From Chloroflexota bacterium (GTDB lineage: Bacteria; Chloroflexota; Anaerolineae; UBA4142): DNA of 34,298 nucleotides. The first letter of the stretch is position 1; every line of letters starts with the position of its first letter. Location: positions 1 to 34,298 of the forward strand of contig VGOB01000030.1 of assembly GCA_016865935.1 (NCBI GenBank), given 5' to 3'. The notes under the pieces were generated by a model. It made no database searches. It saw only the letters and a list, made by a program, of their open reading frames with translations, and had not been told where the DNA came from. The position numbers and the translations under genes were made by a program. Positions 1 through 34,209 of the stretch are shown here, one piece after another.

Positions 1-215
1 ACTGAAAGTCCAACGGCTCACATAACAAATGCACTTCGTTCAACTCACGCTTTGCGGACATGCGGCGGTAGGACGATGACCGCCAGGGCGAAGGTTGTTT
101 CCCGCCGCACGTCGCAAAGTCTTAGTGTTCTCCGCCACGCCGCATCATTCCGCAGTCGGGCGCGGCAGTCAAAGACTAAAAGGCACCCTGAGATTCTAAT
201 TGAGGATTACCTCGT

Positions 216-491
216 ATGGGAACATTACCCGAGACCACAGTAAATCTTTTGCTGAGTGGCTTGATGGGGGCAATCAGTGGACTCTTCACCGTTCCCATCA
301 ATGCCTATATCTTGTGGATGCTGAAACGTGACGAACTGCATTACAAGCATAAACTCGATGTGATTGCCAAAGAACGCGAGTTATTCTTGGAACATAGATT
401 GGAGATGAAACGCAAAGAACAAAGCGAAAGTGAAATAGCCGAATTGAAAACACGAGTCAAACGGCTAGAACAGAGATTAGGCAATGTATAA
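216..491 (+). CDS. small membrane protein with C-terminal coiled-coil (one TM helix then KRKEQSESEIAELKTRVKRLEQ)
   Basis: 91-aa ORF with a hydrophobic N-terminal helix followed by a charged heptad-like segment. Its stop overlaps the start of the next gene, suggesting an operon. Confidence 0.35.
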   Translation: MGTLPETTVNLLLSGLMGAISGLFTVPINAYILWMLKRDELHYKHKLDVIAKERELFLEHRLEMKRKEQSESEIAELKTRVKRLEQRLGNV

Positions 492-1437
492 CACACTAAT
501 CTTGGTGACGTGGGCAATAGTGGTTTCCATCGTTTGCGCGATTAGCATTACTGCCACGTACCGAAAATTCAAGGGCGTCAAGACCGCACTACTGAACGAG
601 ATTGAGCAGGTAGAGCAGGAACTGTTCAGTGACTTTCAGGAAGTTGGTAGGGCGGAACTTGAACAGACGCACGCGGGCAGGGAGTTGTTGGAACTTATTT
701 CCAAAGAGCATCCTTCTTTCTTCGCTGGCAAGCAAGTCTTGACATCATCCGCAGACGCGCCATCTCAAATCAGACTTCCATTTGCACTTCGCTTTGTGTT
801 GCTGTTAGGGAATGCTACCATATTTTTGAGGTACGCCTTCGTCCCAGAAAGCAATCTTCAAGTCATTTATCGTTTTGGCAAATACTCGGCAGTTAAAGGT
901 CCTGGCATTATCAGTTACCAACGCTTGTTTGAAACGCTAGGACCGTTGGTATACATAGGCAGTCAATTTGCAGAATACACGTTCAACGAGATATTCTCTC
1001 GCGACGCTATGCCCATCAATGTTCGGCTGAGGATGGTTTATAAATTTGACCCACGCTCTACTAAAGATGAAATTGCTCGCGTCTTAGTTTCCCTACCTCG
1101 CGAAGCCCTCGTCAGCATCGTTGAAAAATATCTCCGCTGGGCGTTGATGACGGCTATCGGGAATTATGATACCGCCGAAGTTGTACGCCGTGAAGTAATC
1201 ACAAGTATTGAGGAACACCTAAACACCACCGTTTCAAAGGAGATAGGATTTCTCGGCATTCACTTGGGCAGTAAGCCAAACATATTATCAATCGAATTGC
1301 CTCGCCTTGCAATTGAATCCGCCGAGACCGACCTTCATCGTGCCACTGAACTTGTTGAGCAACTGAACCGATACAAAGCAGGCGAGTCATCAGTTCCTCT
1401 TGAAGAAGTGTTGAGGAACTACGTTTCGAGACGATAG
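484..1437 (+). CDS. SPFH/band-7 (stomatin/prohibitin-like) membrane protein
   Basis: N-terminal TM helix, then a beta-rich core (VIYRFGKYSAVKGPGII...) and a C-terminal helical region (YDTAEVVRREVITSIEEHL...GFLGIHL) with the SPFH pattern. The call is by pattern recognition only. Confidence 0.45.
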   Translation: MYNTLILVTWAIVVSIVCAISITATYRKFKGVKTALLNEIEQVEQELFSDFQEVGRAELEQTHAGRELLELISKEHPSFFAGKQVLTSSADAPSQIRLPFALRFVLLLGNATIFLRYAFVPESNLQVIYRFGKYSAVKGPGIISYQRLFETLGPLVYIGSQFAEYTFNEIFSRDAMPINVRLRMVYKFDPRSTKDEIARVLVSLPREALVSIVEKYLRWALMTAIGNYDTAEVVRREVITSIEEHLNTTVSKEIGFLGIHLGSKPNILSIELPRLAIESAETDLHRATELVEQLNRYKAGESSVPLEEVLRNYVSRR

Positions 1438-1463
1438 AAAGAAAAACGCGAGAATGCGCGAGC

Positions 1464-1552
1464 GGAGAACACACGCGCACCGACAACGGCGGGGCGGCTG
1501 GCAATAGGAAGATACTTTCGATTCGCCCGCCGTTGCGGTGCGCTACAGCGTT
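1464..1552 (+). repeat. copy 1 of a ~100-nt structured imperfect palindrome (GGAACACAC...CGACAACGG...CCGTTGCGG...GCTACAGCGTT)
   Basis: Long imperfect hairpin with a bulged A. It shares conserved flanks with copy 2 at 3495-3605, and the paired positions differ by compensatory changes (CGCACCG/CGGTGCG here versus CACGCCG/CGGCGTG in copy 2). Confidence 0.6.
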
Positions 1553-1588
1553 TGCAGACATTCCTTTTTATTAGCGAAAGGTACGCCT

Positions 1589-2221
1589 ATGCCGATAATG
1601 TCAAGACAATGCGCTTTTCAAGAATTGCCAACCAAAGTTGCCCGAGAATTACAAAGGTATATGGCAACTGACGACAAGGTAATTGCTTGTTTTGAGTCAC
1701 AACGAGAAATTGGAAATAAAGATTTTGGCATTTTCAAGAATTACGGTTTCACTGATTGCTACAATGCCTACGTCATCACCCAAAATCAAGTTGTGATTTA
1801 TATGCACTCTTCGAGCAATTCTTACCCCAATCAAGAATCGCTCTCATCAACGCGACTCATTGATATAGACAACGTCTCTGAGCAGGTAGCAGCCAAATTA
1901 GACTTTAGAGTTTACGCTACCAACAATAGCGGCGGTAACAATACGTATTGCTACTTTGTGTCCCAGCAAGCCGCTCGCCAATTCTCTGAAATATTGCGTC
2001 AGGCAATCAGAGAAGCAAAAACGTCATTGGCATCTACTTCTCAATCAACTCAAACTAATGCTAAACGATGTAACCAATGCGGCGCAAACAATCCACCTGA
2101 CAACGCATTTTGCGGAAAATGTGGCTCGGCACTCACAAAGAAATGCAGTCGTTGCGGAACTGTTAATGATTCTGGGTTCAAATTTTGTGGTGTTTGTGGT
2201 ACGCCACTTGGCAATCCGTGA
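1589..2221 (+). CDS. bacterial PH-like domain protein with C-terminal double zinc ribbon
   Basis: C-terminus has CNQCG..CGKCG and CSRCG..CGVCG motifs (two zinc ribbons). The N-terminal part resembles bPH_2/YokE-like domains. Start taken at ATG 1589, with aaagg 7 nt upstream. Confidence 0.5.
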   Translation: MPIMSRQCAFQELPTKVARELQRYMATDDKVIACFESQREIGNKDFGIFKNYGFTDCYNAYVITQNQVVIYMHSSSNSYPNQESLSSTRLIDIDNVSEQVAAKLDFRVYATNNSGGNNTYCYFVSQQAARQFSEILRQAIREAKTSLASTSQSTQTNAKRCNQCGANNPPDNAFCGKCGSALTKKCSRCGTVNDSGFKFCGVCGTPLGNP

Positions 2222-2460
2222 TACGGAGACACGAAAGAGAACGTCTGCAAACACCTGCCCGCCGATTCCGCCACCGTCGCGGCTTTTTGGCATTGTGACT
2301 TCGCGTTTGCAGCGTGCTTTCATTTCGTGGACACTTTGCGGCGGAATCGGCGGGCGGTAGCGTTCCCCGTCATGCCCTTGCAACTGGAGCATCGTACCAC
2401 TCGCAAGTTGACAAGTCGCGTAATCGAATAGACTCAAGAACATCGAAACCTGGGTGAGAC

Positions 2461-3444
2461 ATGAAAACATTCCTTAGTTCAACTTACATAGACCTCGTTG
2501 AACATCGCAAGGCGGCAACCGAAGCTTTAGAACGTCTCGGACAGCAAGTGGGACGTATGGAAATATTCGGCTCTCAGCCGCTAGAGCCGACACAGGTCGC
2601 TTTGGCGGAAATTGCAACATGTGATTTGTTTGTCGGAATATATGCCTACCGTTATGGTTGCATTCCCGCAGGGTCGCTCTCTTCGATAACAGAACAGGAA
2701 TTCGACTACGCCAAGAAACTCAACAAACCTCTTTTCTGCTTTCTCGTAGACGAAGAACATCCTTGGCCGCCCAAAATGATTGAGGACGAACCTGGCAAAA
2801 CAAAGTTACACTCTTTCAAGGCAAAAATTAGTAGCGGTCTAGTGAGGGATACCTTTACAACGCCCGAAGATTTGGCTTTCAAGGTTGCGGCATCCGTTGG
2901 CAGGTATTTGACGGAAGAACAGCCTTCCAAAGTGAGCCAAAATCCGTATGTTGCGCTATTGAGGCAATCAGATGATTTGGCTACCTTTCTAGAGAAAGCG
3001 GTTCGAGAACTTGAGAACATTACACAGACAGATTACAATCAAGTCTTCTTGATGACTTCATCTACATACTCACGTCAACTCGTTGCAGTAGCGGACGTAA
3101 TACCACCTCACAAACAACGCTATCGGATTGCGACGTTTGCGGGGCTACTTGGGTCGGCAGTATCCACAGGAAAGACACTAAACGTGCAAAAAGTACGAGA
3201 GAGACCAAACTACGTCCAAGCAGTTCTCGAAACAGAATCGGAACTCGTTGTTCCCATTTCAACTGCTGGTGCTGTATTCGGAGTCCTGAATTCGGAGAGC
3301 GAGGAAGCATCCCATTACAAAGAAGAAATACGACGCCAAGTAGAGAATCTGTCCGCAGCAATCGGTGAACTTCTACCTACCTTCGGTTGGTATCCAAGCA
3401 TGTCGGTAGACCATTTGCCGTGGATTCATAGATTACCGAAATAA
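2461..3444 (+). CDS. DUF4062-like (TIR-related Rossmannoid) N-terminal domain fused to a C-terminal GAF-like domain
   Basis: N-terminus FLSSTYIDLVEHRKAATEALERLG...DLFVGIYAYRYGCIP...EQEFDYAKKLNKPLFCFL matches the DUF4062 hallmark (STY.DL..ER......L, E.EY..A...P.L.F). C-terminus VVPISTAGAVFGVLNSESEE... is GAF-like. Confidence 0.5.
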   Translation: MKTFLSSTYIDLVEHRKAATEALERLGQQVGRMEIFGSQPLEPTQVALAEIATCDLFVGIYAYRYGCIPAGSLSSITEQEFDYAKKLNKPLFCFLVDEEHPWPPKMIEDEPGKTKLHSFKAKISSGLVRDTFTTPEDLAFKVAASVGRYLTEEQPSKVSQNPYVALLRQSDDLATFLEKAVRELENITQTDYNQVFLMTSSTYSRQLVAVADVIPPHKQRYRIATFAGLLGSAVSTGKTLNVQKVRERPNYVQAVLETESELVVPISTAGAVFGVLNSESEEASHYKEEIRRQVENLSAAIGELLPTFGWYPSMSVDHLPWIHRLPK

Positions 3445-3494
3445 TATGCTGTCAATCACCAACTGCATTCACAGAAAATGAATTTGCACGAACG

Positions 3495-3605
3495 GGGAAC
3501 ACACACACGCCGACAACGGGATGCGCGCGCTTTTCACGATTGTCGGTTGGCTAAAGAGCAAGTCACTTTCATTTCCTGCATCCCGTTGCGGCGTGCTACG
3601 GCGTT
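3495..3605 (+). repeat. copy 2 of the structured imperfect palindrome
   Basis: Outer stem CACGCCG(A)CAACGGGATGC pairs with GCATCCCGTTGCGGCGTG. Flanks are the same as copy 1. It lies 50 bp downstream of the stop of the 2461-3444 gene, as copy 1 lies downstream of the 484-1437 gene. Confidence 0.6.
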
Positions 3606-3861
3606 CCCGATGGCGCCCAAGACGGTCGAGCGAATTATCCAGGGTTACTCCAAGCGCGCGCTCGGTTTTGCGATCAGTTGGCACTCGCTCCGGACCACGT
3701 ACGTCTCGCGGAGTGTCGAGCTCGAGCAATCGCCAGTCGTTGTGATGGCAAACACCGGCGATAGCCCGGCGACGATCTTGAAATACTACGCCAAACTGCC
3801 CGAGGTCGTGATGCGCCGATTTGTAGATGGCAAGCCGGTGATTCCAGGGGAGAGGGTGTAA
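3598..3861 (+). pseudogene. 5'-truncated tyrosine recombinase (phage integrase family), C-terminal catalytic fragment only
   Basis: PKTVERIIQGYSKRALGFAISWHSLRTTYVSRS...ILKYYAKL has the H-x-x-R ... Y box II pattern of tyrosine integrases. The N-terminal SAM-like and core-binding domains are missing. The upstream reading frame runs through the repeat element. Confidence 0.5.
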
Positions 3862-3885
3862 GCACACAAGAGCAGGTAACAGCAC

Positions 3886-3930
3886 ACAAAAAACCTTCGA
3901 GGCGATGAACTGCCTCGAAGGTTTCGTTTA
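3886..3930. terminator. bidirectional rho-independent terminator
   Basis: Perfect 10-bp stem CCTTCGAGGC / GCCTCGAAGG, with an A-run upstream and a T-rich tract downstream. It sits between convergent genes. Confidence 0.55.
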
Positions 3931-4230
3931 TACAGCAATTGGCACGTAAAGATTGGGTTGGGCTTGACGCCAATGCGCTCTTTTGCTCGACTGGAGTCGC
4001 GCAAACACAATTGGTTTGTCGCGGCGGGCAAACGCATCCAGCAACCTCATATTGTAGAGTCGCATTTCGGGATCGTCGTCCGGTAGGATGACCAACTCAA
4101 AGTCACTGGGTAACGACGCCAGAACTTTCGGCTCTGCCAGCAAAAAGCGCATCAAATCGCCCAGCAGCGCGATGTTGCGCTCGACGACGCGTCGTGGTTT
4201 TCTGATCGGCGCAGTTACTTTTCTTTCCAT
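3928..4230 (-). CDS. hypothetical protein (downstream of the PIN gene)
   Basis: 100-aa ORF co-directional with the toxin-antitoxin pair. No recognisable domain. Confidence 0.3.
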   Translation of the reverse strand: MERKVTAPIRKPRRVVERNIALLGDLMRFLLAEPKVLASLPSDFELVILPDDDPEMRLYNMRLLDAFARRDKPIVFARLQSSKRAHWRQAQPNLYVPIAV

Positions 4231-4245
4231 TTGGGGTGTTCCCCA

Positions 4246-4704
4246 TTAGACTTGGGCAAGATACTCGGTGGGCGTGAGTATGCGCAAACTTGATTTGCCT
4301 TTGAAATGCCGTGCGTTCCATGTAACAAAACTCGTTACGCTCGGGGTTCGTTCCGCGAGATTCAGCGCAAGCGCATCCATGAACGCCATGCGGTGCATCC
4401 GCATTTTGGCAAACGGTTGATCCATGATTTCTGATTTGAAGTTGATCGTCGCAGTTGGATTGTCGAGTCCCACCGGCGCGAGCACACTCAGGTTATATAC
4501 TTCGATGAGCCATTCGCGCCAATTATCAAATTTTGCCGGAGCAAGGTTGAACGACAATTGTCCCAAAAGTTCCATCAAGTTGTACACGGTGATGGCGGGT
4601 TCCTCGGTCCGGACGCGCTCCAGAAATTCAGAATTGACTGTTTGACGCGCGTCACTCTGAAACGCGAATTCGAGCAAGAGAACGTCGGTGTCTATGACGA
4701 CCAT
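4246..4704 (-). CDS. vapC: PIN-domain ribonuclease toxin (VapC-like)
   Basis: MVVIDTDVLL start and conserved acidic residues (IDTD, LMELL, FMDAL, TWNARHF), typical of PIN/VapC. It overlaps the upstream small antitoxin ORF by 13 nt. Confidence 0.7.
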   Translation of the reverse strand: MVVIDTDVLLLEFAFQSDARQTVNSEFLERVRTEEPAITVYNLMELLGQLSFNLAPAKFDNWREWLIEVYNLSVLAPVGLDNPTATINFKSEIMDQPFAKMRMHRMAFMDALALNLAERTPSVTSFVTWNARHFKGKSSLRILTPTEYLAQV

Positions 4705-4964
4705 GAACGCCCTCGCAAGCGGATCATCGTTTCTTCGAGCGTGCCGGTTACTTTGCCTGCTAGTTCCTTGCGAATCTCAGCGGCGAGGCGACGCCCACGT
4801 CGAATCGCCACGGGCGAACCCGTCGGGCGCATGATGTACACGCGCGGCGTCCTGTCCAGTTCGGCGCGCAAGCGGTTTTGTTGAGCGAGTGGCAGTGCTC
4901 GAACATTCTCCAATATCTGGCGATAGGTTAGGCGCGGTTTGCGCCGAGTCATTACCATAGGCAC
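4692..4964 (-). CDS. putative antitoxin of the PIN toxin (VapB-like)
   Basis: 90-aa basic ORF immediately upstream of the PIN gene and overlapping it, the classic toxin-antitoxin arrangement. No strong domain signature. Confidence 0.4.
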   Translation of the reverse strand: MPMVMTRRKPRLTYRQILENVRALPLAQQNRLRAELDRTPRVYIMRPTGSPVAIRRGRRLAAEIRKELAGKVTGTLEETMIRLRGRSWSS

Positions 4965-5021
4965 CTCCGTACCAATTATACATCAATTTTGATTTTGGTG
5001 AAATTCGACGATCTGGTCACA

Positions 5022-5303
5022 TCATCCCTTCGCGCATTGATCGATCTCGTCTTGCTTGATCGTCCGCTTTTGATATTTCTCCGCAAACTCAATGATGCTT
5101 GACCGCGCGATTTTCACCGCCGCGTTTCGGTCTGGTCCCACGCGAAACCCCTTCAATTCCCCGCCCGCAAAGTAGCGCAGCACCTGTACCTTGGACAAAT
5201 ACAACACGCGCGCCGCGATGCTCGCCGACACGTACTTGGTCGGTGCTGGGTCAGCGCGTTTGAGTTGCAGCACGCCGAGTTGGAAATTCTTGCGCCGTTT
5301 CAT
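5022..5303 (-). CDS. excisionase/MerR-family HTH DNA-binding protein
   Basis: YVSASIAARVLYLSKVQVLRYFAGGELKGFRVGPDRNAAVKIARSSIIEF matches the excisionase-family DNA-binding domain (winged HTH: sv.EaA.lLgvs..tv.rl...G.l....vG). Confidence 0.5.
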   Translation of the reverse strand: MKRRKNFQLGVLQLKRADPAPTKYVSASIAARVLYLSKVQVLRYFAGGELKGFRVGPDRNAAVKIARSSIIEFAEKYQKRTIKQDEIDQCAKG

Positions 5304-5389
5304 ATCTCAAGTATATCATATCGTTTCAAATAGACCAAATGTTCGATTCGTTACATTCATTCGTTTCGTAACATCTTGCCGCCAAAGTC

Positions 5390-5419
5390 TTGACATTTGG
5401 CTTCGCGCGGGTGTATAGT
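5390..5419 (+). promoter_or_regulatory. sigma70-like promoter (TTGACA, 18-bp spacer, TATAGT)
   Basis: TTGACAtttggcttcgcgcgggtgTATAGT, immediately upstream of the first plus-strand gene of the phage-like module. Confidence 0.4.
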
Positions 5420-5443
5420 ATCAGCGTGGAAAGCAAAGCGTTC

Positions 5444-5605
5444 ATGAAAAATCTGCTGCTCCTCAAGCTGCACGAGTGGCTGGAGTCGATTGAACCTATG
5501 CTGGAGTGTTCTAGGTTTCGCGGTACGTTTCAGTTGGCTCTCGACGTTGACATGGAAAAACGTGATGTGAAGCTGAAGACCTACGTGCAGCAACCAACAA
5601 CTTGA
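5444..5605 (+). CDS. small hypothetical protein (53 aa)
   Basis: ATG preceded by GGAAAG. Lies between the promoter and a strong terminator. Confidence 0.35.
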   Translation: MKNLLLLKLHEWLESIEPMLECSRFRGTFQLALDVDMEKRDVKLKTYVQQPTT

Positions 5606-5625
5606 AATTGATTCGGCGCGCTGGA

Positions 5626-5670
5626 AAATGCAACCGAACCCGTTCCCTGGGTCGGTTGCATTTTTGTTTG
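5626..5670 (+). terminator. rho-independent terminator
   Basis: Stem TGCAACCGAACC / GGTCGGTTGCA followed by TTTTTGTTTG. Confidence 0.55.
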
Positions 5671-5737
5671 TTTCTGCCATCGTGGGGGATTGCCCCTCGA
5701 TCATTCCGCGCGAACGCGCAACCAAAGGAGAGTCTCT

Positions 5738-6025
5738 ATGTTAGTGCAAGGGTTAGTCGTCGGCGTCAAGGATGCGTCCTACGACTCCAAGCGTGAACCG
5801 GGCAAGAAAGTCGCCCAGTGGCAAATCGATCTGTACGACGACACGGCGGGCGTCCAGTCCTGCCAAATGGCGGGCGGCGCGAATGTGCTGCCCCCGGCGG
5901 TGCGGACGGACATCATCGCCGACGTCACCGCGATCCGGAAGCTGACGTTCGGCACCGGAATTCAATTGACGATTGCCAACGTCCGTCCGGCGAACGCGCC
6001 ACCGGCTGGCAAGCCGCCACGCTAG
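5738..6025 (+). CDS. hypothetical protein, possible ssDNA-binding (gV-like) by position
   Basis: RBS AAAGGAG 7 nt upstream of the ATG. ~95 aa, beta-rich, and located just before the small coat-like genes. No direct motif evidence. Confidence 0.4.
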   Translation: MLVQGLVVGVKDASYDSKREPGKKVAQWQIDLYDDTAGVQSCQMAGGANVLPPAVRTDIIADVTAIRKLTFGTGIQLTIANVRPANAPPAGKPPR

Positions 6026-6160
6026 AACAAACGAGGTCAAGGCGGCGGGAACGTGCGAGATTTGGGCGTATGCCTCGGGTAGGTAGTGCATCAAGCTGCT
6101 AGCGATCTCGCGGACCTCATTTGATTTAATCCTCTTACTTTTTCCCCTGGAGTACGTGAA

Positions 6161-6385
6161 ATGTGGGCAGGCTTTTGGTGTTCGAGTTGTAAAATCTTCG
6201 GGCTCGCTTGTCGTATTTGGGTCCCGCAGCATTGCTCGCTGGACAACAATCAATCCCTCATCGTGCAGTGGTTCAATTGGCAACCGGTTGTAATGACGAT
6301 CTCGATTGTCGTCGCGGTCTCTGTTGCTATTTTCCTCATCGCCTACTTTTCGAGTACCGTGCTCAATCTGCTTCATCAAAAGTAA
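6161..6385 (+). CDS. small membrane protein (74 aa), minor coat-like candidate
   Basis: GGAG RBS. C-terminal TM helix VVMTISIVVAVSVAIFLIAYF. Confidence 0.4.
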   Translation: MWAGFWCSSCKIFGLACRIWVPQHCSLDNNQSLIVQWFNWQPVVMTISIVVAVSVAIFLIAYFSSTVLNLLHQK

Positions 6386-6397
6386 ACGGGGTGTGTT

Positions 6398-6889
6398 ATG
6401 CAACAAGGTGCAATGTGGGGCGCGTTAGTCGGGACGTTGACTAATCAGCGTCTGACCCAGGACATCACGAAATATTTGGAGTGGTCTGTGATTGTCTTTG
6501 TCTTTGGCGTTCCGATCTGCATCATCGTCGCCAGTTACATCACGGAGGGCGTTTTCAAGTTGAGCAAGACGGTTGCGGGAATGGGTGCGGCGAAGATGCA
6601 GAACACTAACCGCAAAGTGGCGGACGATTGGAAAATGGCGACTGCGGGAGGTAGTTTTGCCGGTTCGTGGAGATCGGAAACGGGGCAGTACGGAGAGGTC
6701 AAGCAAGAGCTGGGCAAGTTGGGCTACGTGCGCGGAGGCAATCAGATGGATACGGAATACTGGGTTGCCTTGGAGCATAAACAAGGGCGTCCTGACGTGA
6801 TCAAGGTGCAAACCTTCAGCGATCAGGTTCAAGCGGCGCGCGCGCAAGGGTCTCGCCCCAAGCGCAAAGTTGGGCCGGTGAAGAAATGA
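6398..6889 (+). CDS. membrane protein (163 aa)
   Basis: TM helix WSVIVFVFGVPICIIVASYI followed by a soluble domain. Confidence 0.45.
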   Translation: MQQGAMWGALVGTLTNQRLTQDITKYLEWSVIVFVFGVPICIIVASYITEGVFKLSKTVAGMGAAKMQNTNRKVADDWKMATAGGSFAGSWRSETGQYGEVKQELGKLGYVRGGNQMDTEYWVALEHKQGRPDVIKVQTFSDQVQAARAQGSRPKRKVGPVKK

Positions 6890-6950
6890 TCGGGAAAATT
6901 TATTTCCGCGTTTGCCTTTTTGTGTGGGGCATCTTGTCAGGGGCGATCAA

Positions 6951-8579
6951 GTGAGAAAACCAGGAACATCGGATCGGCATCGTCTCGCGTTGGGCTTGGC
7001 TGCGCTTTTGTTTTCCTTAAGCGCGATCCTCGTCGTGCCGTTTCTTGCTTTTGGTCAAGGGACGATTCCAGCGAATGGGGCGTTTAGTGGTGGTCTCACG
7101 GGCTGGACTGTTCTCGGGTCTCAGGTGTGGCGCGGGGACATTGGACGGACCGCTAATGGCGCGGCGTGGTTTTATGGTAACGGCGGCGGTGCTTTGGTCA
7201 GTTCCGCATTTGTTCCGAGTGCGTCAACCGTCTTGACGATGTGGGTCGGTCGCTTAACTGGCTATGCCGCGATGCTGTACCTGCAAGTGTGGGATTACAC
7301 CACGGGGCAGATTCTGTTCGTCGGCAATCCGGTGAGTGCTTCGGGCTGGACTGAGCAGCAGTACGATTTATCCGGGTACGCGGGAAAAGTGATCGCGATT
7401 TCGTTCAACGCCAATTCTGGTAATGACGTGGTTGCGGTGGACGATATTTCGATTTCCAATGCGAGTTCATACACGGCATCGGAGAGCGAGGGAAATTGGT
7501 CGTTTCGCGCGTCGCTCAAGGGCTGGGTCCCGATGATGTCTTTTGCGTTTCAATCGTCGGTCAGTCAAGATGCGAATTCGGGATCGGTGGGCTTTTCCGG
7601 ATCAACCTGGGGCAATGTTTACAGTGTTCCGGTGTTGGTCTCAAGCGCGAATTGGTCGGGTTACTATCGTTGCACATCAACGCAGTATGTGCGGATTCAT
7701 TGGTACGATCAAACCCTGGGGACAAATGCGCTCATCACGCAACCTGCCGCAAATTGTGATGGCACCTGGAAACAGTTTTCCTGGTCAATGGGTCAGTACG
7801 TAGGTAACACGGGTCAATTGATGGGCACGATCTATGATGGCGGGACGAATTACCTGGACGCGCTTTGTCCTAGTTCCGGGTGCGGATCGGGCAACCTGGC
7901 AACGCCTACGCCGATCCCCAGTCCTACGGCAACCGGCGGCGGCGGTGGGGGCTATCCGACGCAATTACCCTATCCGACGCAATTACCTTATCCGACTTTC
8001 CCGCCATTTCCTACGTTCGCCCCATACCCGACTTTCCCGCCTTACCCGACTGTTGATTTCGGATGGAGTACGCCTTACGTGATTACGTTTGGCGGGACGC
8101 CTCAACCCGTGATCGTCACCAACACGGTGCAGATTACCGGTTCGGTCAACGTGCTGAACTGGCCGACGCCGATCTACGGACCGGGGACGCCGATGCCGGT
8201 TTATTATCCGACCAAGGAAATGACGCCCTTTGCAATTCCCACGGGCGCAGGTGGTGGGGGCGGCTTGGGGGTCACAATTGGCGGGGTGGTTGCAACCCAG
8301 CAAACGGGCAACATCTCGGGCGTGATGCCGTTCGCAACCCAGGGCGGTCAAACTTTCGAGACGCCAGGGGCGACGATCCAAGAACGTGTCCTGGGCTTTT
8401 GCTTTCCGGAACAAGTGACCAGGATTTTCGGGGGCGGTGCCGTGCCGGTCTGCTTCAACTTTACGATGTGGGAGGTCACGAAATTTTCGTACCTGGGCGT
8501 CAATCTGCTTGTGCCGCTCGGCGCGATTATGATCGTGTTCTTCTTTGTCTTCCTGGCGCGCCAGGTGCAGCAAAATTAG
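6951..8579 (+). CDS. pIII-like minor coat/adsorption protein: signal peptide, two beta-rich domains, Gly-rich and Pro/Thr/Tyr-rich linkers, C-terminal membrane anchor
   Basis: N-terminal signal/TM LALGLAALLFSLSAILVVPFLAFG and two similar domains (WTVLGSQVW... and WSFRAS...). Linker is PTPIPSPTATGGGGGGYPTQLPYPTQLPYPTFPPFPTFAPYPTFPPYPT, with a later GAGGGGGLG run. C-terminal anchor is LLVPLGAIMIVFFFVFLARQ. GTG start with AGGGG RBS chosen; TTG 6912 is an alternative. Confidence 0.5.
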   Translation: MRKPGTSDRHRLALGLAALLFSLSAILVVPFLAFGQGTIPANGAFSGGLTGWTVLGSQVWRGDIGRTANGAAWFYGNGGGALVSSAFVPSASTVLTMWVGRLTGYAAMLYLQVWDYTTGQILFVGNPVSASGWTEQQYDLSGYAGKVIAISFNANSGNDVVAVDDISISNASSYTASESEGNWSFRASLKGWVPMMSFAFQSSVSQDANSGSVGFSGSTWGNVYSVPVLVSSANWSGYYRCTSTQYVRIHWYDQTLGTNALITQPAANCDGTWKQFSWSMGQYVGNTGQLMGTIYDGGTNYLDALCPSSGCGSGNLATPTPIPSPTATGGGGGGYPTQLPYPTQLPYPTFPPFPTFAPYPTFPPYPTVDFGWSTPYVITFGGTPQPVIVTNTVQITGSVNVLNWPTPIYGPGTPMPVYYPTKEMTPFAIPTGAGGGGGLGVTIGGVVATQQTGNISGVMPFATQGGQTFETPGATIQERVLGFCFPEQVTRIFGGGAVPVCFNFTMWEVTKFSYLGVNLLVPLGAIMIVFFFVFLARQVQQN

Positions 8580-8589
8580 AGGTGATCGA

Positions 8590-8706
8590 ATGTTGATTTT
8601 TGGTACCGCTGGCTTGGCTCTCGTGGTGCTGATGTTTGTCCTGCTCGTCGTCTTTCTGATCGCCGATGCGATTAGATGGGTCGTCTCACTCTTTATGGGC
8701 GGCTAA
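8590..8706 (+). CDS. small hydrophobic protein (38 aa), pVI-like candidate; below the ORF-track size cutoff
   Basis: GAGGTGA RBS then ATG. MLIFGTAGLALVVLMFVLLVVFLIADAIRWVVSLFMGG. Confidence 0.35.
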   Translation: MLIFGTAGLALVVLMFVLLVVFLIADAIRWVVSLFMGG

Positions 8707-8710
8707 GCGA

Positions 8711-9559
8711 ATGGGGCTTTTGGCAAACGGCTTGCCGATGGCATCGGCGGCGCAAATGCGGCTCAAGCATTTGCTCTTTACCTATCTGCGCTATCTGTAC
8801 GGCGATAGTTTTGCAAAGGACCCGATCCTGGGTTTCTTTTTCGGCGATTGGTTGGAGGACGCCGGAGTGGAACCGGCGATTCCTCGATGCGTCGTCGAAT
8901 TGGAACAGAAGATCACCTATCCCAAACCGACGTTCTGGAATGCGGAGAATTTCCTTGAAGCACTCCTGGCTTATCGCTTGGTATGGCTGAAAGGTCGGCT
9001 TGGCGGCGGTAAGACCTCGCTCGCGTTCGGGCTTGCGAAATGGTTGTACGAAACGAAAGGCAAGGATGGGCATCGCCTGGTAGATGGCGTATTTACAAAT
9101 GTGCCTTCCGATCCGGATTTCATTCCACGCTTGGATCACTGTTATCGCGCCTGCGTGATTCTCGATGAAGGATGGGCGCACGGCGCCGATTCGCGTGACA
9201 GTGGTTTTCGATATTCGGGGTACGGCGCATACGCGCGCAAGTTGGATTGCTTTTGGTTGCAAGCGTCCAAGAATGAAATTGACAAGCGAATGACGGATGT
9301 CATTGCTAAGCGGCGCGGCGATCTCTGGATGTTCAAGGCGTGGCTGTACACCTGGACGGACGGCGAGGCGTCTGAAGGTTGGTTCTTGTGGCGTCGCTAT
9401 ACTGAAGTCTTTGGACGTTACTTGACCAAGTTCATTCCGGCGGACGATGGCGGAATTTTGGAAAGTCAAAAATATGAGATCGCCGGACGCGCGGGTAGCA
9501 CTCAATTGCTCGTGCCGACCGGATGGTACAACAAACCAAGGACAGGGGCGCACGCGTGA
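8711..9559 (+). CDS. P-loop NTPase, Zot/pI-like phage assembly ATPase candidate
   Basis: Walker A VWLKGRLGGGKTSLAFGLAKW and Walker B CVILDEGW. It follows the pIII-like and pVI-like genes as in inoviruses. Start could be 8666 instead. Confidence 0.45.
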   Translation: MGLLANGLPMASAAQMRLKHLLFTYLRYLYGDSFAKDPILGFFFGDWLEDAGVEPAIPRCVVELEQKITYPKPTFWNAENFLEALLAYRLVWLKGRLGGGKTSLAFGLAKWLYETKGKDGHRLVDGVFTNVPSDPDFIPRLDHCYRACVILDEGWAHGADSRDSGFRYSGYGAYARKLDCFWLQASKNEIDKRMTDVIAKRRGDLWMFKAWLYTWTDGEASEGWFLWRRYTEVFGRYLTKFIPADDGGILESQKYEIAGRAGSTQLLVPTGWYNKPRTGAHA

Positions 9560-10449
9560 GCGATCAACCTTTGACTTCTGCGCCTGATGCGCCGGAAAAA
9601 CTTGCCGCGCCAGGCGTGACGCCAAAAGACAATACGCGTCCGGAGTTGCATTTCCAAAATCGCCGGAAGTTGTTGACCTTGTTTTTCATCGTCCTGATCC
9701 TGGGCGTCTGCTGGTTTATGGGATCACGTTTCGCCAATCCGCTGCAAGGCGCGGATATGGCGTTGACCGGTGGGGCGACTGCGGCGAAAAAACGAGAAAC
9801 GGCGCAAGCATTGGAGCAGCAGCAGGGTCCCTTGCCGCCTGCGGTGAAAGGTTTGGCGTTGACTGCTACGCCTCCTGCGATTGGCGGCGGGATTATGGGG
9901 GCGTCTCAACCGAACGTGCCTGCGCCTCAGCAACAACAACCGGCAACCTCGGGTCGTTCGAGCGGCGTGATTGTTGCGGCGCCGAATGAGATAAACGCGG
10001 TGATGTGCCGCGTTGTGTCGAATTTTGAGGCCGAGAGCGTGAAACTGCTTCAAGGTTCTTTGGTTCGCGCTTCGGGCTTTTCATACGCAAAAAACGGAGT
10101 GGTGTACCTTTCGGATCCGAATGTTGGCTGGGTAGATTCGACCTGGTTGGGTTGTCCGCCGGAGATCGTTCGCATCGAGCGACCTTACTTTGTTTCTCCG
10201 ACTGTGACGCCGACCGGAAAAGCGAAAGGTCCGGAGGTTCTTCGTGTGGCAGTTCCTCAGACTGTTGTCGTTAGTGCTACGCCTTGCGTACTACCTAAAA
10301 CGCCTGCTGAGGTGAATGGGGTGGTGCTGGAGGGCGATTGCGTCATTTTTCAAATTACGGGCGTTCGCGCGATCTATGCCGATGGCAAACCTGTTTCCGG
10401 CGGTACAAAGATTTGCGGCGTCAATAATTTCAGTGTCACGATTCGATGA
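9523..10449 (+). CDS. bitopic membrane protein with extracytoplasmic domain (possible pI C-terminal/pXI-like partner)
   Basis: One TM (LLTLFFIVLILGVCWFMG) followed by a Pro/Ala/Gln-rich linker and a beta-rich domain. Overlaps the end of the NTPase gene. Confidence 0.4.
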   Translation: MVQQTKDRGARVSDQPLTSAPDAPEKLAAPGVTPKDNTRPELHFQNRRKLLTLFFIVLILGVCWFMGSRFANPLQGADMALTGGATAAKKRETAQALEQQQGPLPPAVKGLALTATPPAIGGGIMGASQPNVPAPQQQQPATSGRSSGVIVAAPNEINAVMCRVVSNFEAESVKLLQGSLVRASGFSYAKNGVVYLSDPNVGWVDSTWLGCPPEIVRIERPYFVSPTVTPTGKAKGPEVLRVAVPQTVVVSATPCVLPKTPAEVNGVVLEGDCVIFQITGVRAIYADGKPVSGGTKICGVNNFSVTIR

Positions 10450-10464
10450 AAGGGGGTGAGATCA

Positions 10465-10545
10465 ATGAGCGATCCGAATCCAAGGATTCCGGAGGACGAT
10501 GAAGAGGAATGGTTGGACGATGAGGACGACGACGAGGGCGAGTAG
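10465..10545 (+). CDS. tiny acidic peptide (26 aa; MSDPNPRIPEDDEEEWLDDEDDDEGE)
   Basis: Strong RBS AAGGGGGTGAG then ATG. Extremely acidic. Confidence 0.25.
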   Translation: MSDPNPRIPEDDEEEWLDDEDDDEGE

Positions 10546-10576
10546 TCTTACTCTCGTACACTAGGAAAGGAGAGGT

Positions 10577-11242
10577 ATGTTCGGGGATTTTGTTTCGTCT
10601 TTGCAGTTGTCCGCGTTGAGCGATGCCATTATGGGCGTGTTGTCTATTCCGTTGGTGCCAGCGTTGGGGCTGACTGTGATCGTGTTCTACCTTGTGCCGT
10701 TCGCGTTTCGCCGACTTTATGCTTTGGCTTCGAGTAATCGTCAATCGGATGAAATTCTTCGGGAGTTTGCGGCGGCGCGCGAGGTTGAATCGCGGATTCA
10801 GAGTTTCTTGTTGCGCCATCCTCCCCGTTCGGTCGAGGAACAAGCTGCGGCGGAGCTCGGCATTTCGGTCGAGGAGTTGATCGCGCCCGATCCTTGGGAT
10901 GAGTATAAAGTATTTTCGGCGGACGGTGGTCCTGAGATGGATCCGGTCGAGGCGCGCGAGATTTTGGAGGCGGAAAGACAGGGGGGCGATCCTCGTGGTC
11001 GGGTGGTATGGCTGTATGATGAAACGAGTGATGTGGGAAAGTCCATTCGGCGACAATCTGAGAAAAGGCGAAAACGCGGGGGTGATCAGCGGGTAGCCGA
11101 AGAACTCGGGATGTCGGTGGAGGAGTGTCGCGAGCTTATGGCGGCGGAAGAGTATCTTTACGATGAAACAAGTGGTGCGGCAAAGTCCCTTCGGCGACAA
11201 GCTGAGAAAAGGCGAAAACGCGGGGGCGATTTGCCCTTCTAG
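10577..11242 (+). CDS. coat-like N-terminal TM domain protein, paralog A (internal duplication; C-terminal RRKRGGDLPF tail)
   Basis: N-terminus MFGDFVSSLQLSALSDAIMGVLSIPLVPALG is shared with 11293, 12066, 12952 and 13740. The AEELG(I/M)SVEE...KS(I/L)RRQ(S/A)EKRRKRGGD module occurs twice. GGAG RBS. Confidence 0.6.
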   Translation: MFGDFVSSLQLSALSDAIMGVLSIPLVPALGLTVIVFYLVPFAFRRLYALASSNRQSDEILREFAAAREVESRIQSFLLRHPPRSVEEQAAAELGISVEELIAPDPWDEYKVFSADGGPEMDPVEAREILEAERQGGDPRGRVVWLYDETSDVGKSIRRQSEKRRKRGGDQRVAEELGMSVEECRELMAAEEYLYDETSGAAKSLRRQAEKRRKRGGDLPF

Positions 11243-11292
11243 TATTTTCGTGTCGCGCACGTGCTTGACACGAAATAATTCGGGGAGTTGAA

Positions 11293-12015
11293 ATGTTCAA
11301 TGATTTTGTTTTCTGGCTTGACCTGACGAGATTGGCGGACGCCATCGGCGCGGTATTACAAATTCCGCTCGTCCTGGCACTCGGCGTTAGCGTGTTTGCG
11401 CTGCCGCTCGTGGTTATCGTTTTCCGGCGTCTGTACGATTTGCTGGAGTTGCGTCACGTCATCGCGTTGTCAAAACGTGAAGCGACTCAGCAAGCGCAGT
11501 TTGAAATCGACCTGGCTCAATTTCTGTTGAAACGTCCGGATTTGAGTATCGAGCAGCGGGTAGCTGAAGAACTCGGGATGTCGGTGGGGGAATTGAACGC
11601 GCCTGGCGGGTGGAGTGATGATTCGGTTTATTCGGCGGATGGGGGTCCCGAAATGGATCCAGTTGAGGCGCGCGAGATTTTGGAGGCGGAAAGACAGGAC
11701 GGCGGACAGTACGGTCGTAGCCGCGCTATTTCTCTCGCCGATGGGTCCTATGCCTGTCCGGAATGCCTGAGCGGTCTGGATGAAGAGTACGTGCCCGATG
11801 GCTCGCTTGGCTGTTCTGTGTGCGGATGGCTTGAAATGGACGATGATCCTCAGCCGGTGGTGGGCTATGTGCCAAAGCGCGCCCAAAATCCGTCTGAGTT
11901 CGTGGATTCGCTTTATGATGCGGACGGCAATTTCGCCGCATTCACGCCGACGCAAAAGTCAATTCGACGACAAGCCGATAGAAGGCGAAAACGCGCGGGC
12001 GATTTGCCCTTCTAA
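11293..12015 (+). CDS. coat-like N-terminal TM domain protein, paralog B (zinc-ribbon CPEC...CSVCGW; same C-terminal tail)
   Basis: MFNDFVFWLDLTRLADAIGAVLQIPLVLALG. Shares ADGGPEMDPVEAREILEAERQ and the KSIRRQADRRRKRAGDLPF end with paralog A. Confidence 0.6.
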   Translation: MFNDFVFWLDLTRLADAIGAVLQIPLVLALGVSVFALPLVVIVFRRLYDLLELRHVIALSKREATQQAQFEIDLAQFLLKRPDLSIEQRVAEELGMSVGELNAPGGWSDDSVYSADGGPEMDPVEAREILEAERQDGGQYGRSRAISLADGSYACPECLSGLDEEYVPDGSLGCSVCGWLEMDDDPQPVVGYVPKRAQNPSEFVDSLYDADGNFAAFTPTQKSIRRQADRRRKRAGDLPF

Positions 12016-12065
12016 TATTTTCGTGTCGCGGTCGAGCGGGACACGTAATAATTCAAGGAGATGAA

Positions 12066-12659
12066 ATGTTCAATGAATTTGTTCTCTGGCTTGACTTGGC
12101 GGGTTTGGCTGCCGCGATCTCGGCGGTGTTTGCGATTCCGCTGGTTCAGGCACTTTTCGTAGGGCTGCTCGGCTTTACCATCGTGCTTTGGGGGCTGAAG
12201 ATGATTTCGCGATTGGCGGGGCTGTATTTCGCGTTGCCCGGAGATGTCCACGAGGCGACACCAGGCGCGATCAATGTGCCTGGAATGATGCTCCGCCAGG
12301 ACGATTACTTGAATGTGGACGTTGACGTGGCGGCAACGTTGCTTACAGGGCAACAAGCTCAATGGATGGTCGAGCGTTATGGCCCGGACGTCGATCCTGT
12401 CTTGAGCGAAGAGGGCAGCTGGATGCAAGTGCGCGTTGACCTGGGTTTGAATGCGCCGGAATTGTATTATGGCTTGACTGGGCCCGAAGCAATGGCTTTG
12501 CAGGATTACTCGTATCGTCGCGCGTTTCCTGAGGAGTTCTCGGGTGGGGGGGATGCCGAAATGATCGCCTCGCACAATCAAATGCGCGCGCGCCGTTCCG
12601 CGAACAATCGGGGGCAAAATCAGCACTATGACGATCTCGCCTTCGAGGGTGCGGTCTGA
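12066..12659 (+). CDS. coat-like N-terminal TM domain protein, paralog C (divergent C-terminal domain)
   Basis: MFNEFVLWLDLAGLAAAISAVFAIPLVQALF, with two TM helices. The 50-bp leader is nearly identical to that of paralog B. Confidence 0.55.
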   Translation: MFNEFVLWLDLAGLAAAISAVFAIPLVQALFVGLLGFTIVLWGLKMISRLAGLYFALPGDVHEATPGAINVPGMMLRQDDYLNVDVDVAATLLTGQQAQWMVERYGPDVDPVLSEEGSWMQVRVDLGLNAPELYYGLTGPEAMALQDYSYRRAFPEEFSGGGDAEMIASHNQMRARRSANNRGQNQHYDDLAFEGAV

Positions 12660-14720: not shown

Positions 14721-15665
14721 ATGCACATAGACTGGATAGGTGTAACCCTTCAAGGCAATAGCCAACATGCTCTTGGGCTTGTGCGCTCGTGGGCTGGGTC
14801 GCTCGAGGAGATGAGCGGCGGAGGTATGGGCTACGATCGAAGTGCCAAGATATGGGACACGGGTCGAGTGTATTGGTCTACTATGCGATCCGATATGGGC
14901 GTTCACGTCCGCTTGCCTTCAAGCGCAATGCACACAAGCAAACAAGACTCAGTGGACCTACTGACGTGGCTTGTGAGGCACAACGGCAATACGACGCGGC
15001 TTGACGTGGCTTGTGATGACTTTGACTATCACTTGCTCGACCTCGCAGAGATTAGCCGCAAGGCGCAAGAGGATGAAGTATGCACGGACGCCCAGGTGAT
15101 TGATGAATGGCACGCGTTGCGGGGCGTAGGGCATACGATCTACTTTGGCTCGCGTTCGAGTGAGCGCCTGTTACGCATTTATGACAAAGCCGCGGAGCAA
15201 GTAAAAAAAGCGGGCGGCAATGCGGCGATGCCTGACGAATTCTGGGTTCGGGTGGAGTTGGAGTTGAAAGGGGATCGGGCAAAAGTCGCGGGGCAAATGA
15301 TCGTTGATCATCGTGAAACGTGGCAGATTCTAGGGGCTGGCTGGATTCGGGACTTTGTAGATTTCAAGGAACCCGAATTGGAGGATATTAACAAGGCGCG
15401 TTGGGAAACTTCTAGATGGTGGCTTGATTTTCTGGACAATGCTGCCAAGTGCAAAATTCCGATCAAGCGTGAGGAACAAACGATAGAACGGATCGTGGCG
15501 TGGGTGGACAAGCAAGTGGCGCCCAGTCTGTTTGTTTTGAGCGCGACGGTGGGACACGATCAGGTATTTGAACGGGTTGGCGCGGCGTCTGCGCGTTTGA
15601 GTGCGCGCCAGGTGCAGTTGATCAATGAGTGGAACACTGAAAACGAGGTTACCGATGTTCAATGA
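14721..15665 (+). CDS. rolling-circle replication initiator, Rep_trans family (phage replication initiation factor, RstA/gpII-like)
   Basis: Motifs HTIYFGSRSSERLLRIYDKAAE and FWVRVELELKGDRAK resemble the conserved (R)xYDK and vRvElel blocks of PF02486. Size 314 aa. Confidence 0.55.
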   Translation: MHIDWIGVTLQGNSQHALGLVRSWAGSLEEMSGGGMGYDRSAKIWDTGRVYWSTMRSDMGVHVRLPSSAMHTSKQDSVDLLTWLVRHNGNTTRLDVACDDFDYHLLDLAEISRKAQEDEVCTDAQVIDEWHALRGVGHTIYFGSRSSERLLRIYDKAAEQVKKAGGNAAMPDEFWVRVELELKGDRAKVAGQMIVDHRETWQILGAGWIRDFVDFKEPELEDINKARWETSRWWLDFLDNAAKCKIPIKREEQTIERIVAWVDKQVAPSLFVLSATVGHDQVFERVGAASARLSARQVQLINEWNTENEVTDVQ

Positions 15666-27629: not shown

Positions 27630-27762
27630 TGCGTTGTTTCCCCTTTTGTGGTAAAGTGTCGGTGGAGAGCGGGACGCTTCGCGGGCTAACCCCGCTCCCC
27701 ACCGTTGTTTCGTGCGCGGCATCCTTTTGCCGCGCATTTTTTGTTGGTAACGGAAATCCGTG

Positions 27763-27815
27763 ATACGAAAATCACGGAAAAATCACTACTTTCCGTGATA
27801 GCACAAACGTTCGCT
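27763..27815. promoter_or_regulatory. operator-like TCCGTGAT / ATCACGGA repeats in the regulator-integrase intergenic region
   Basis: aaaTCCGTGATacgaaaATCACGGAaaaatcactacttTCCGTGATagc. The same 8-mer recurs six times in 29302-29490. Confidence 0.5.
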
Positions 27816-27848
27816 TTGTGCTATGCTGGGACTCACAAGGAGTCAGGA

Positions 27849-33602: not shown

Positions 33603-33619
33603 AAAGGAGGTTCACCCTA

Positions 33620-34209
33620 TGGGCTACGGAATCAAAATCCGAGTGCGTGGCGAGTATGCCCTGTTTACCCGCCCTGAAATGAAAGTGGAGCGTGTGAGTT
33701 ACGACATCATCACGCCTTCGGCGGCACGTGGAATCATCGAAGCGGTGTACTGGAAGCCAGCCATCCGCTGGGTGATAGATAAAATCCACGTGTTGAACGG
33801 AATCGAGTTCACTAACATTCGGCGCAATGAGGTAAGCGAGAAGGCGTCCGAAAGTGAAGCACGGCGGCGGATGAACGGCGCAACTGATCCATTTTATTTG
33901 TCCGCAACAGACGCCCGCCAACAACGCGCCGCGCTCGTGCTGAAAAACGTGGATTACATCATCGAAGCGCACTTCAAATTGACCGACAAGGCAGGCGCGG
34001 AGGACACAGTTGAAAAGCACTACAACATTATCCTGCGCCGCTTGCGCAAGGGACAGCATTTCCACGCGCCTTGTTTGGGAACGCGCGAGTTTGGCGCAAA
34101 GGTGGAATTGATCGAAGATGATGCGCCAATGCCGCCAAGCCCGCTTGGAAATCTGGAGTTGGGTTGGATGTTAGACATTATTAAAAATAGGGATAAAATG
34201 TATGCATGA
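33620..34209 (+). CDS. cas5c: Cas5c (Cas5d, type I-C pre-crRNA endoribonuclease subunit)
   Basis: MGYGIKIRVRGEYALFTRPEMKVERVSYDIITPSAARGIIEAVYWKPAI is the characteristic Cas5d N-terminus. AGGAGG RBS. Confidence 0.8.

Follow-up and report, generated by a model that had tools for sequence, protein, structure and literature searches.

What role do the structured palindromes play that follow the genes at the left-hand end of this Chloroflexota contig? The window, meaning the whole stretch of 34,298 nucleotides (nt) analysed here (assembly GCA_016865935.1, contig VGOB01000030.1, positions 1 to 34,298), was read in a preliminary description as carrying two copies of a roughly 100-nt palindromic element. 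Four roles had been put forward for it: a mobile hairpin like those known as repetitive extragenic palindromes (REP) or miniature inverted-repeat transposable elements (MITE), an attC-like recombination site, a stabiliser in the 3' untranslated region (3'-UTR), or a small non-coding RNA. Our analysis supports the second. The hairpins are, with high confidence, attC-type cassette recombination sites, and window positions 1-3605 are the distal end of a cassette array, with three complete cassettes and four attC sites, in a probable Chloroflexota chromosome.

The two copies lie where they had been reported and share a 35-nt 5' block (83% identical) and a 23-nt 3' block (87% identical), found as direct repeats D1 and D4. 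Their number had been set too low. The window holds four co-oriented hairpin elements, at about 35-136, 1461-1559, 2243-2371 and 3491-3612. A covariance model (R1), built from relatives of the two reported copies only and with the second sequence class excluded, recovered 2242-2372 (35.9 bits, E 1.5e-6), which belongs to that class. A broader model (R2), run with filters off and with attC0 absent from its training, recovered 34-137 (28.8 bits, E 7e-5), which R1 had missed. No further element was found in the other 30 kb of the window, where the next best R2 score was 9.2 bits. The four sites and their parts are as follows.

35 to 136, plus strand: attC0, read from the sequence, closing a cassette cut by the contig end. 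R'' TTCGTTCAAC 35-44 (AAC 42-44); spacer TCAC 45-48; L'' 49-68 with an extra G57; loop 69-101; L' 102-120; spacer 121-126; R' GTTCTCCGCC 127-136; crossover between G127 and T128.

1461 to 1559, plus strand: attC1, the first of the two reported copies, supported by direct repeats D1 and D4, the fold, model R1 (97 bits) and the arm alignment. R'' AGCGGAGAAC 1461-1470; spacer ACAC 1471-1474; L'' 1475-1497 with a bulged A1483 and an extra G in the run 1491-1494; loop 1498-1524; L' 1525-1543; spacer TACAGC 1544-1549; R' GTTTGCAGAC 1550-1559; crossover between G1550 and T1551.

2243 to 2371, plus strand: attC2, of the second sequence class, supported by inverted repeat I5 (100% complementary), the fold and model R1. 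R'' GTCTGCAAAC 2243-2252; spacer ACCT 2253-2256; perfect 16-bp stem of 2257-2272 with 2340-2355; loop 2273-2339; spacer GGTAGC 2356-2361; R' GTTCCCCGTC 2362-2371; crossover between G2362 and T2363.

3491 to 3605, plus strand: attC3, the second reported copy and the last site of the array, supported by the repeats, the fold, the model (107 bits) and the arm alignment. R'' AACGGGGAAC 3491-3500; spacer ACACA 3501-3505; L'' 3506-3524 with a bulged A3513; loop 3525-3577; L' 3578-3595; spacer CTACGGC 3596-3602; GTT 3603-3605; crossover between G3603 and T3604.

All four sites follow one plan. On the 5' side, a box ending in AAC is followed by a 4-5-nt spacer, a stem of at least 7-8 base pairs (bp) and a further stem with a variable loop. 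On the 3' side come the complementary arm, a 5-7-nt spacer (for example CTACRGC) and then GTT. The two spacers face each other as an asymmetric unpaired region, which the arm alignment finds across the family; it also places the attC2 class in two further loci (L022 and L034). The AAC and GTT triplets occupy 42-44 and 127-129, 1468-1470 and 1550-1552, 2250-2252 and 2362-2364, and 3498-3500 and 3603-3605, and they are present in 47 family sites. The functional unit runs from the AAC-ended box through the GTT-headed box and is slightly longer than the element first outlined, which was rightly called a structured palindrome. From AAC to GTT it measures 85-115 nt in the window and 58-164 nt in the family. 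The two reported copies do lie downstream of a stop codon on the coding strand, at 24 and 47 nt and not at the 30-50 bp given for them.

An extra base occupies the same position of the 5' arm in three of the four sites (G57 in attC0, A1483 in attC1 and A3513 in attC3), the latter two being the single bulged A already noticed. On the bottom strand it corresponds to a T or C bulging from the 3' arm, and about two-thirds of family sites show it. The terminal loops differ in length and sequence, both in the window and in the family. They are TTTC-rich on the top strand, which is GAA-rich on the bottom strand, where the loop of canonical attC sites is also GAA-rich (PMC5027507).

Folded as single-stranded DNA, the two reported copies formed long hairpins on both strands, better than all 200 dinucleotide shuffles (z -3.3 to -3.9; attC1 -3.9 on the top and -3.25 on the bottom strand, attC3 -3.3 on each strand). 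The fold of attC2 reached z -2.8 and the bottom-strand fold of attC0 z -2.0. Paired substitutions between the stems of the two copies (GCGCACCG/CGGTGCGC versus CACGCCG/CGGCGTG) are visible in the sequence. The consensus stem from 19 unique copies has 18 pairs, 6 of them with compensatory changes. With 55 model-aligned sites, compensatory changes were found in 15 of the 18 pairs and pairing in 94.8% of cells, a figure that is biased upward because the alignment was fitted to the covariance model. None of 500 shuffles reached the observed values, and registers slid by 1-3 columns gave at most 49% pairing. The preliminary description was correct in concluding that covariation of the stem implies selection on structure.

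A stable, covarying hairpin 24-47 nt past a stop codon on the coding strand would also suit an element that acts as RNA, namely an intrinsic terminator, a 3'-UTR stabiliser or a small non-coding RNA, and the hairpins may fold incidentally within mRNA. Nevertheless, we regard a role at the RNA level as very improbable. No T-run follows the hairpins, whose tails read GCAGACATT, CCCCGTCAT and CCCGATGGC; a terminator scan of positions 1-5000 misses all main stems; and the comparison with Rfam that had been recommended returned no match at gathering score in the whole window. In addition, the conserved AAC/GTT boxes and the pairing with the next unit, described below, are explicable by DNA recombination only. 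A promoter scan of positions 1-5000 gave promoter-like matches no better than those in shuffles.

Taking the attC reading, we placed the boundaries of the cassettes at G↓TT (the arrow marks the crossover), which delimits three complete units and gives the first 3.6 kb of the window exact cassette boundaries.

128 to 1550, plus strand, 1423 bp: cassette 1, with the open reading frames (ORFs) 216-491 (91 aa) and 484-1437 (317 aa, SPFH/Band 7; Pfam Band_7, E 8e-9).

1551 to 2362, plus strand, 812 bp: cassette 2, with ORF 1589-2221 (210 aa, double zinc ribbon; Pfam DZR/Zn_Ribbon).

2363 to 3603, plus strand, 1241 bp: cassette 3, with ORF 2461-3444 (327 aa, DUF4062 and GAF; Pfam DUF4062 at 1e-18, plus GAF).

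Every cassette ORF lies on the attC strand, with one or two ORFs per unit, and the GC fraction is 0.47-0.49 in the cassettes versus about 0.55 past position 3500. PADLOC found no match among the cassette and neighbouring proteins, so a defence role of the cassettes is unsupported.

Downstream of each GTT, the bases are complementary to the outer box of the following element and not to that of their own site, which gives the units the look of integron cassettes: because a circular cassette would be opened at G↓TT, the R' tail belongs to the cassette that follows. In the window, GTTCTCCGC (127-135) is the reverse complement of the attC1 R'' part GCGGAGAAC (1462-1470). Likewise, GTTTGCAGAC (1550-1559) is the exact reverse complement of GTCTGCAAAC (2243-2252), matching at 7/7 variable bases (inverted repeat I7), and GTTCCCCGT (2362-2370) is that of ACGGGGAAC (3492-3500). 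The start of cassette 3, GTTCCCCGTC, matches the reverse complement of that cassette's own R'', AACGGGGAAC, at 6/7 bases. All three window junctions score 6-7 of 7. We extended this closure test to 27 adjacent site pairs in 13 arrays: the 7 nt that follow GTT in one site were matched to the reverse complement of those preceding AAC (again 7 nt) in the next. Adjacent sites scored a mean of 5.48/7, with at least 6/7 in 19 of the 27 pairs. The controls gave 3.43/7 for a site against itself and 3.18/7 for sites of different loci, where 128 of 2247 comparisons (5.7%) reached at least 6/7.

Many cassettes open after R' with a conserved leader, approximately ATKCCnTTnCAA (window 1560-1575 and 2372-2387; L041 3376-3392; L056 11299; L058 11327). 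The pairing of the cassette start with DNA upstream of R'' reaches 19 nt in the window (I7), and this pairing and leader may be an extended R box or a common 5' leader. Long antisense ORFs cross the GC-rich attC sites on the minus strand (1199-1561, 2045-2470 and 3469-3885), and one of them (window 2045-2443) is annotated by the Joint Genome Institute (JGI) as a gene of 132 aa. All three are probably palindrome artefacts.

The closure rule also bears on the proposal that the hairpins are REP- or MITE-like elements, spread by a transposase independently of the neighbouring genes. Such elements would likewise be intergenic, GC-rich, imperfect palindromes of about 100 nt in many copies. However, the hairpins here keep the same strand throughout each array and directly follow ORFs, their flanking bases obey cassette closure, and gene-plus-hairpin units are gained or lost whole at G↓TT (see below). 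The other 30 kb of the window contain no copy. Terminal inverted repeats with target duplications were not seen, and no search for genes of REP-associated tyrosine transposases (RAYT) was made. We consider this explanation to have hardly any likelihood, even less than an RNA-level role.

The preliminary description had raised the prospect that just two copies exist; instead, dozens of family members occur in other DNA. A pattern scan of metagenome contigs returned 26 loci, 21 of which keep flanks that the pattern left unspecified (AACACAC and GCTACnnCGTT). Because these flanks are conserved, we take the 21 as true members, and the other five look like chance matches. A looser pattern run against one genome per species found three contigs of metagenome-assembled genomes (MAGs), titled Chloroflexi bacterium, Chloroflexus sp. 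and uncultured bacterium. The family thus occurs in Chloroflexi MAGs and in freshwater or groundwater metagenomes, and its arrays are co-oriented with 2-6 sites each. Some arrays are associated with insertion sequence (IS) elements. At one locus (L037, 7833) the sequence diverges from a related one (L036, 9422) just after the AAC-A of an attC R'' box and runs into a 585-aa ORF; at another (L058 17284-18456) an IS110-family transposase lies between attC sites.

Comparison with known integrons places the family close to canonical attC sites, represented by the VCR of the Vibrio cholerae superintegron and attCaadA7. These are described as having R and L boxes, an AAC triplet, extrahelical bases, an unpaired central spacer and a variable terminal structure, with the AAC/GTT triplet as the sole stretch kept across all attC sites (PMC5027507). 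The window sites resemble them in the imperfect inverted repeat, the outer AAC/GTT and the R and L boxes around an unpaired spacer, as well as in the variable loop and a length within roughly 57-141 nt; three of the four also have an extra base on the L'' arm. The resemblance extends to their place at the 3' end of promoterless ORFs, the co-oriented arrays, the G↓TT crossover and an R' tail that belongs to the next cassette. The window family differs in that its R box pairs over about 10 bp in the closed cassette, in the 8-bp first stem after the spacer, and in the highly conserved L box (CCGACAACGG/CCGTTGCGG) and the leader after R'.

Further evidence comes from the right-hand end of the array, where attC3 is fused to the remnant of another gene.

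3604 to 3861, plus strand: the surviving 3' part, 85 codons long, of the gene for a small tyrosine recombinase; attC3 meets it at G↓TT.

The preliminary description had this copy abutting a truncated integrase, which holds exactly to the base. DNA homology to longer copies of the gene begins at window 3603/3604 (83% in L053 and L054, 78% in L055 and 73% in L052), a native GTTCCC stands at the junction point in L055 and L052, and the protein alignment of the remnant starts at FPMA. The upstream DNA in L051 and L052 encodes an intact gene of about 185 aa, consisting of the catalytic domain only; the window copy has therefore lost about 100 codons. The remnant itself matches the C-terminal part of XerS weakly (E 2e-4). 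Recombination between attC and secondary GTT sites (attG, with a GWT consensus) by integron integrases has been described, and the resulting excisions may extend past the insertion point (bioRxiv 10.1101/2022.09.11.507474). The distal end of our array resembles these sites in being an attC x GTT junction inside another gene. As judged from the aligned sequences, attC3 has recombined at G↓TT with the GTT inside the neighbouring gene, deleting the 5' part of that gene. The junction is the product expected of an attC and a secondary GTT site, and is direct evidence that attC3 has undergone recombination and crosses over at G↓TT; the 'truncated integrase' is the scar of a site-specific deletion.

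We also considered whether the homologues of the remnant are universally relics of 145 aa or less. This was rejected, since the upstream DNA of L051 and L052 shows the gene of about 185 aa; the database gene calls for this short-recombinase family, all of 145 aa or less, reflect start-codon choices and varied truncations. Inverted TGTCCTATT/AATAGGACA repeats lie upstream of the short-recombinase genes (L051 9600-10400; L052 9690-10440), and these genes might encode invertases or belong to a small integrative module.

The junction region is present at 100% identity in Logan contigs of separate sequencing runs, which cover positions 106-3683 and 1767-10978; the junctions are thus not chimeric. 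The idea that the palindromes arose by chance or by misassembly draws on the position of the array at a contig end. Its probability is negligible: none of the 200 shuffles folds as well, independent assemblies are 100% identical, and the family recurs in many samples.

Several observations nonetheless weigh against the attC assignment. Beyond the triplet, the R' boxes of the window (GTTCTCC, GTTTGCA, GTTCCCC and GTTCCCG) depart from the canonical GTTRRRY/RYYYAAC. Canonical attC sites have 2-3 bulges but the window sites 0 or 1, the first 16 bp of attC2 being free of any. Nor is the bottom strand stabler than the top in every case. Eight of the 27 adjacent pairs break the closure rule, although for most of them an intermediate site was probably overlooked. 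The same cassette occurs at 84% identity in two different arrays (L011 1215-1874 and L035 4138-4800), yet the 7 nt after GTT differ between the copies and neither fits the cassette's own R'', an exception that a simple G↓TT crossover does not explain. Finally, no integrase or attI lies beside the array within the window. As such, the window array is an integrase-less end fragment, operationally an attC cluster without an integrase (CALIN), which it resembles in having four attC sites and no integrase within reach, with its left side beyond the contig end.

The lack of a visible integrase follows from the contig ending inside the array; the JGI metagenome contig Ga0194113_10001298, which the window covers almost entirely, also ends inside it, 8 nt left of the window. 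No IntI was found in the 30 kb to the right, where the sole complete integrase (27705-28766) is Xer-like. We rejected this gene as the enzyme of the array: it lies 24 kb off, is XerC-like (TIGR02249, 61 bits) and is unrelated to the 3604-3861 remnant.

Related loci offer a candidate, and bear out the association with integrases that had been recommended for checking. In three loci (L028, L007 and L030), tblastn with an IntI1 sequence, used as a probe only, detected C-termini resembling that of IntI, which precede the arrays and share their strand; no canonical IntI was detected in any fetched locus. An IntI-related recombinase gene precedes cassettes or attC-family sites in ten related loci, in the same orientation as these; three of the genes are intact and seven damaged. 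The recombinase family is about 380 aa long (375-395 aa in about 70 of the best 120 matches), and its homologues, where named, come from Chloroflexi, Chloroflexota or Anaerolineae. The catalytic R, H-x-x-R, H and Y residues are kept. Its best NCBIfam model is the integron integrase TIGR02249; both the best PDB sequence match and the first Foldseek rank went to VchIntIA (PDB 2a3v), with XerA second by Foldseek. Other features are a SAM-like core-binding domain, a C-terminal SPLD motif shared with IntI and an N-terminal extension of about 100 aa. In an AlphaFold model (predicted local distance difference test score 82), the latter forms a separate beta-beta-alpha-beta-beta-alpha domain. It matches the HARP domain at 17.5 bits, below the threshold of 25, which makes this a lead only. 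Because the gene occupies varied chromosomal positions and is frequently degraded, we consider it an accessory rather than a housekeeping gene.

The region between the recombinase stop and the first cassette reads as a putative attI. In nine of the ten loci (L047, the tenth, is outside this count), the sequence predicted from the R'' of the first cassette was found 96-162 bp past the recombinase stop. Several of these junction regions have CGACACAAA/TTTGTGTCG repeats in common, and the region is semi-conserved. At one locus (L041), the recombinase and attI are followed by six cassettes. NYN and SIR2 genes occupy one each, two others contain genes that match nothing in Pfam, and each of the remaining two has an XisH/XisI pair. 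A locus from another sample (L042) is the same minus cassettes 1 and 2 (NYN and SIR2), precise at the attI G↓TT junction (L041 3366-5996 versus L042 3693). This difference records the gain or loss of cassettes within a population. The cassette that two different arrays have in common at 84% identity (L011 and L035, above) is a further sign of activity.

The layout, with an upstream same-strand recombinase and attI just past its stop, recalls integrons reported in Archaea, in which intI is co-oriented with the cassettes and attI lies directly downstream (PMC9668308). The IntIs of those integrons carry the additional domain, whereas the Chloroflexota recombinase lacks it and has the N-terminal extension. 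As a simple tyrosine recombinase without I2, the latter also resembles the Xer/XerA dimer resolvases; unlike theirs, its genes adjoin cassette arrays and a conserved attI, not dif.

Against assigning this enzyme to the sites stand its departures from IntI. The TIGR02249 scores of 200-218 bits are below the cutoff of 265, and the XerA model is almost level (217.6 vs 218.4 bits). The alignment to TIGR02249 is split in two, with model positions of about 178-234 left out. Relative to VchIntIA, residues 181-239, including the I2 'additional domain', are replaced by 17 residues, and the AlphaFold model has no extra helix at that place. I2 has been reported as required for capturing cassettes and as the step that made single-strand recombination possible and created integrons (PMC7790495); a survey found the insertion 'not fully conserved' in its integron-like subgroup (PMC8138268). 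The seven damaged genes (L036, L041, L047, L048, L007, L030 and L028) carry an in-frame stop, frameshifts, an internal deletion of the core-binding domain, small insertions, an IS element or an N-terminal truncation. In L028, an IS1182-family transposase (587 aa, 2975-4738) adjoins the cut gene. Degraded intI genes are known in sedentary integrons (PMC2426708). A search with a 148-aa fragment had suggested that every array-adjacent recombinase is dead; we rejected this, as a reconstructed full-length query finds many intact proteins of 375-395 aa.

Two of these points, the reported need for I2 and the seven damaged genes, favour an explanation in which the attC sites are genuine and are recombined by a canonical, I2-bearing IntI encoded elsewhere, the adjacent I2-less gene being in decay or unrelated. 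Canonical integrons have been reported in Chloroflexi (PMC4889954, PMC2426708), and where the difference between L041 and L042 arose, the local recombinase lacks its N-terminal part, which means that some activity must be supplied in trans. In contrast, in the nine loci the 3' end of the I2-less gene stands at a constant spacing from the attI-like region and first junction, and attI sites are normally specific to their own integrase (PMC2095811). In addition, no canonical IntI emerged from the tblastn search of the fetched loci with the IntI1 probe, intact copies with conserved catalytic residues are many, and the sites have few or no bulged bases, the feature that I2 docks. We therefore regard a canonical IntI acting in trans as rather unlikely. 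That the co-located I2-less recombinase is the enzyme of these attC sites is plausible and, on balance, favoured.

Our model for the array follows integron biology, where recombination uses the folded bottom strand of attC (PMC5027507). One strand of the attC, by analogy the bottom strand, would extrude as a hairpin; a tyrosine recombinase would bind the paired R and L boxes and cut in the AAC opposite the top-strand G↓TT. Recombination of attC with attC would excise a circular cassette, and that of attC with attI would insert it beside the integrase gene (PMC5027507). The enzyme would likely be the IntI-related, I2-less recombinase of about 380 aa found upstream of arrays in the ten loci. That the substrate is single-stranded, which strand takes part and which enzyme acts on it are inferences. 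More broadly, and with slightly less than even confidence, we propose a Chloroflexota integron lineage in which an IntI-related recombinase without I2, and with a novel N-terminal domain, captures and excises cassettes via folded attC sites at G↓TT.

If this lineage is real, I2 would be dispensable for structure-specific cassette recombination. The enzyme would then be either a pre-I2 relative of IntI or one in which another domain took over the role of I2; a phylogenetically inferred IntI ancestor is not available (PMC7790495). A natural relative of IntI that is widespread and catalytically intact, lacks I2 and is tied to a conserved attI and attC arrays would offer a direct experimental handle on the origin of single-strand attC recombination. 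Integron detection tools define integrons by an I2-bearing IntI. Arrays like these would consequently be filed as orphan attC clusters, and I2-less recombinases could account for some attC clusters without a recognisable integrase. The kind of element and its layout are already known, and the variant is probably undescribed: in a searchable library that is incomplete, we found no paper linking I2-less IntI-like proteins with attC arrays, which is weak evidence of novelty.

The rest of the window differs in content. Positions 3900-28800 hold mostly ORFan genes, with toxin-antitoxin-like pairs on the minus strand (4246-4964), a Rep_trans/MobT-like relaxase (14721-15665) and the complete Xer-like integrase at 27705-28766. 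Flanked by the cassette array and the cas genes, this stretch probably represents a mobilisable element that has integrated; a tRNA scan found no tRNA target, and none at its ends. Beyond it, 30363-34209 encodes a fusion of a WYL domain with Cas3 (HD and helicase, 1079 aa), followed by Cas5d, and a tandem-repeat scan of the window found no CRISPR array. A phage origin of the contig was rejected, as PHROGs and Pfam give only the Rep_trans/MobT-like gene, the Xer-like integrase and Cas3/Cas5. Within the stretch, C10 and G6 tracts occur at 25170-25257 in short tandem or inverted units (TTGCCCCCCCCCCGCATTTTT/GGGGGGCAAACTTTGCACCCT). Internal repeats at 10915-12162 are 81-92% identical between the adjacent genes 10577-11242 and 11293-12015, which suggests that these two genes are a tandem paralogue pair.

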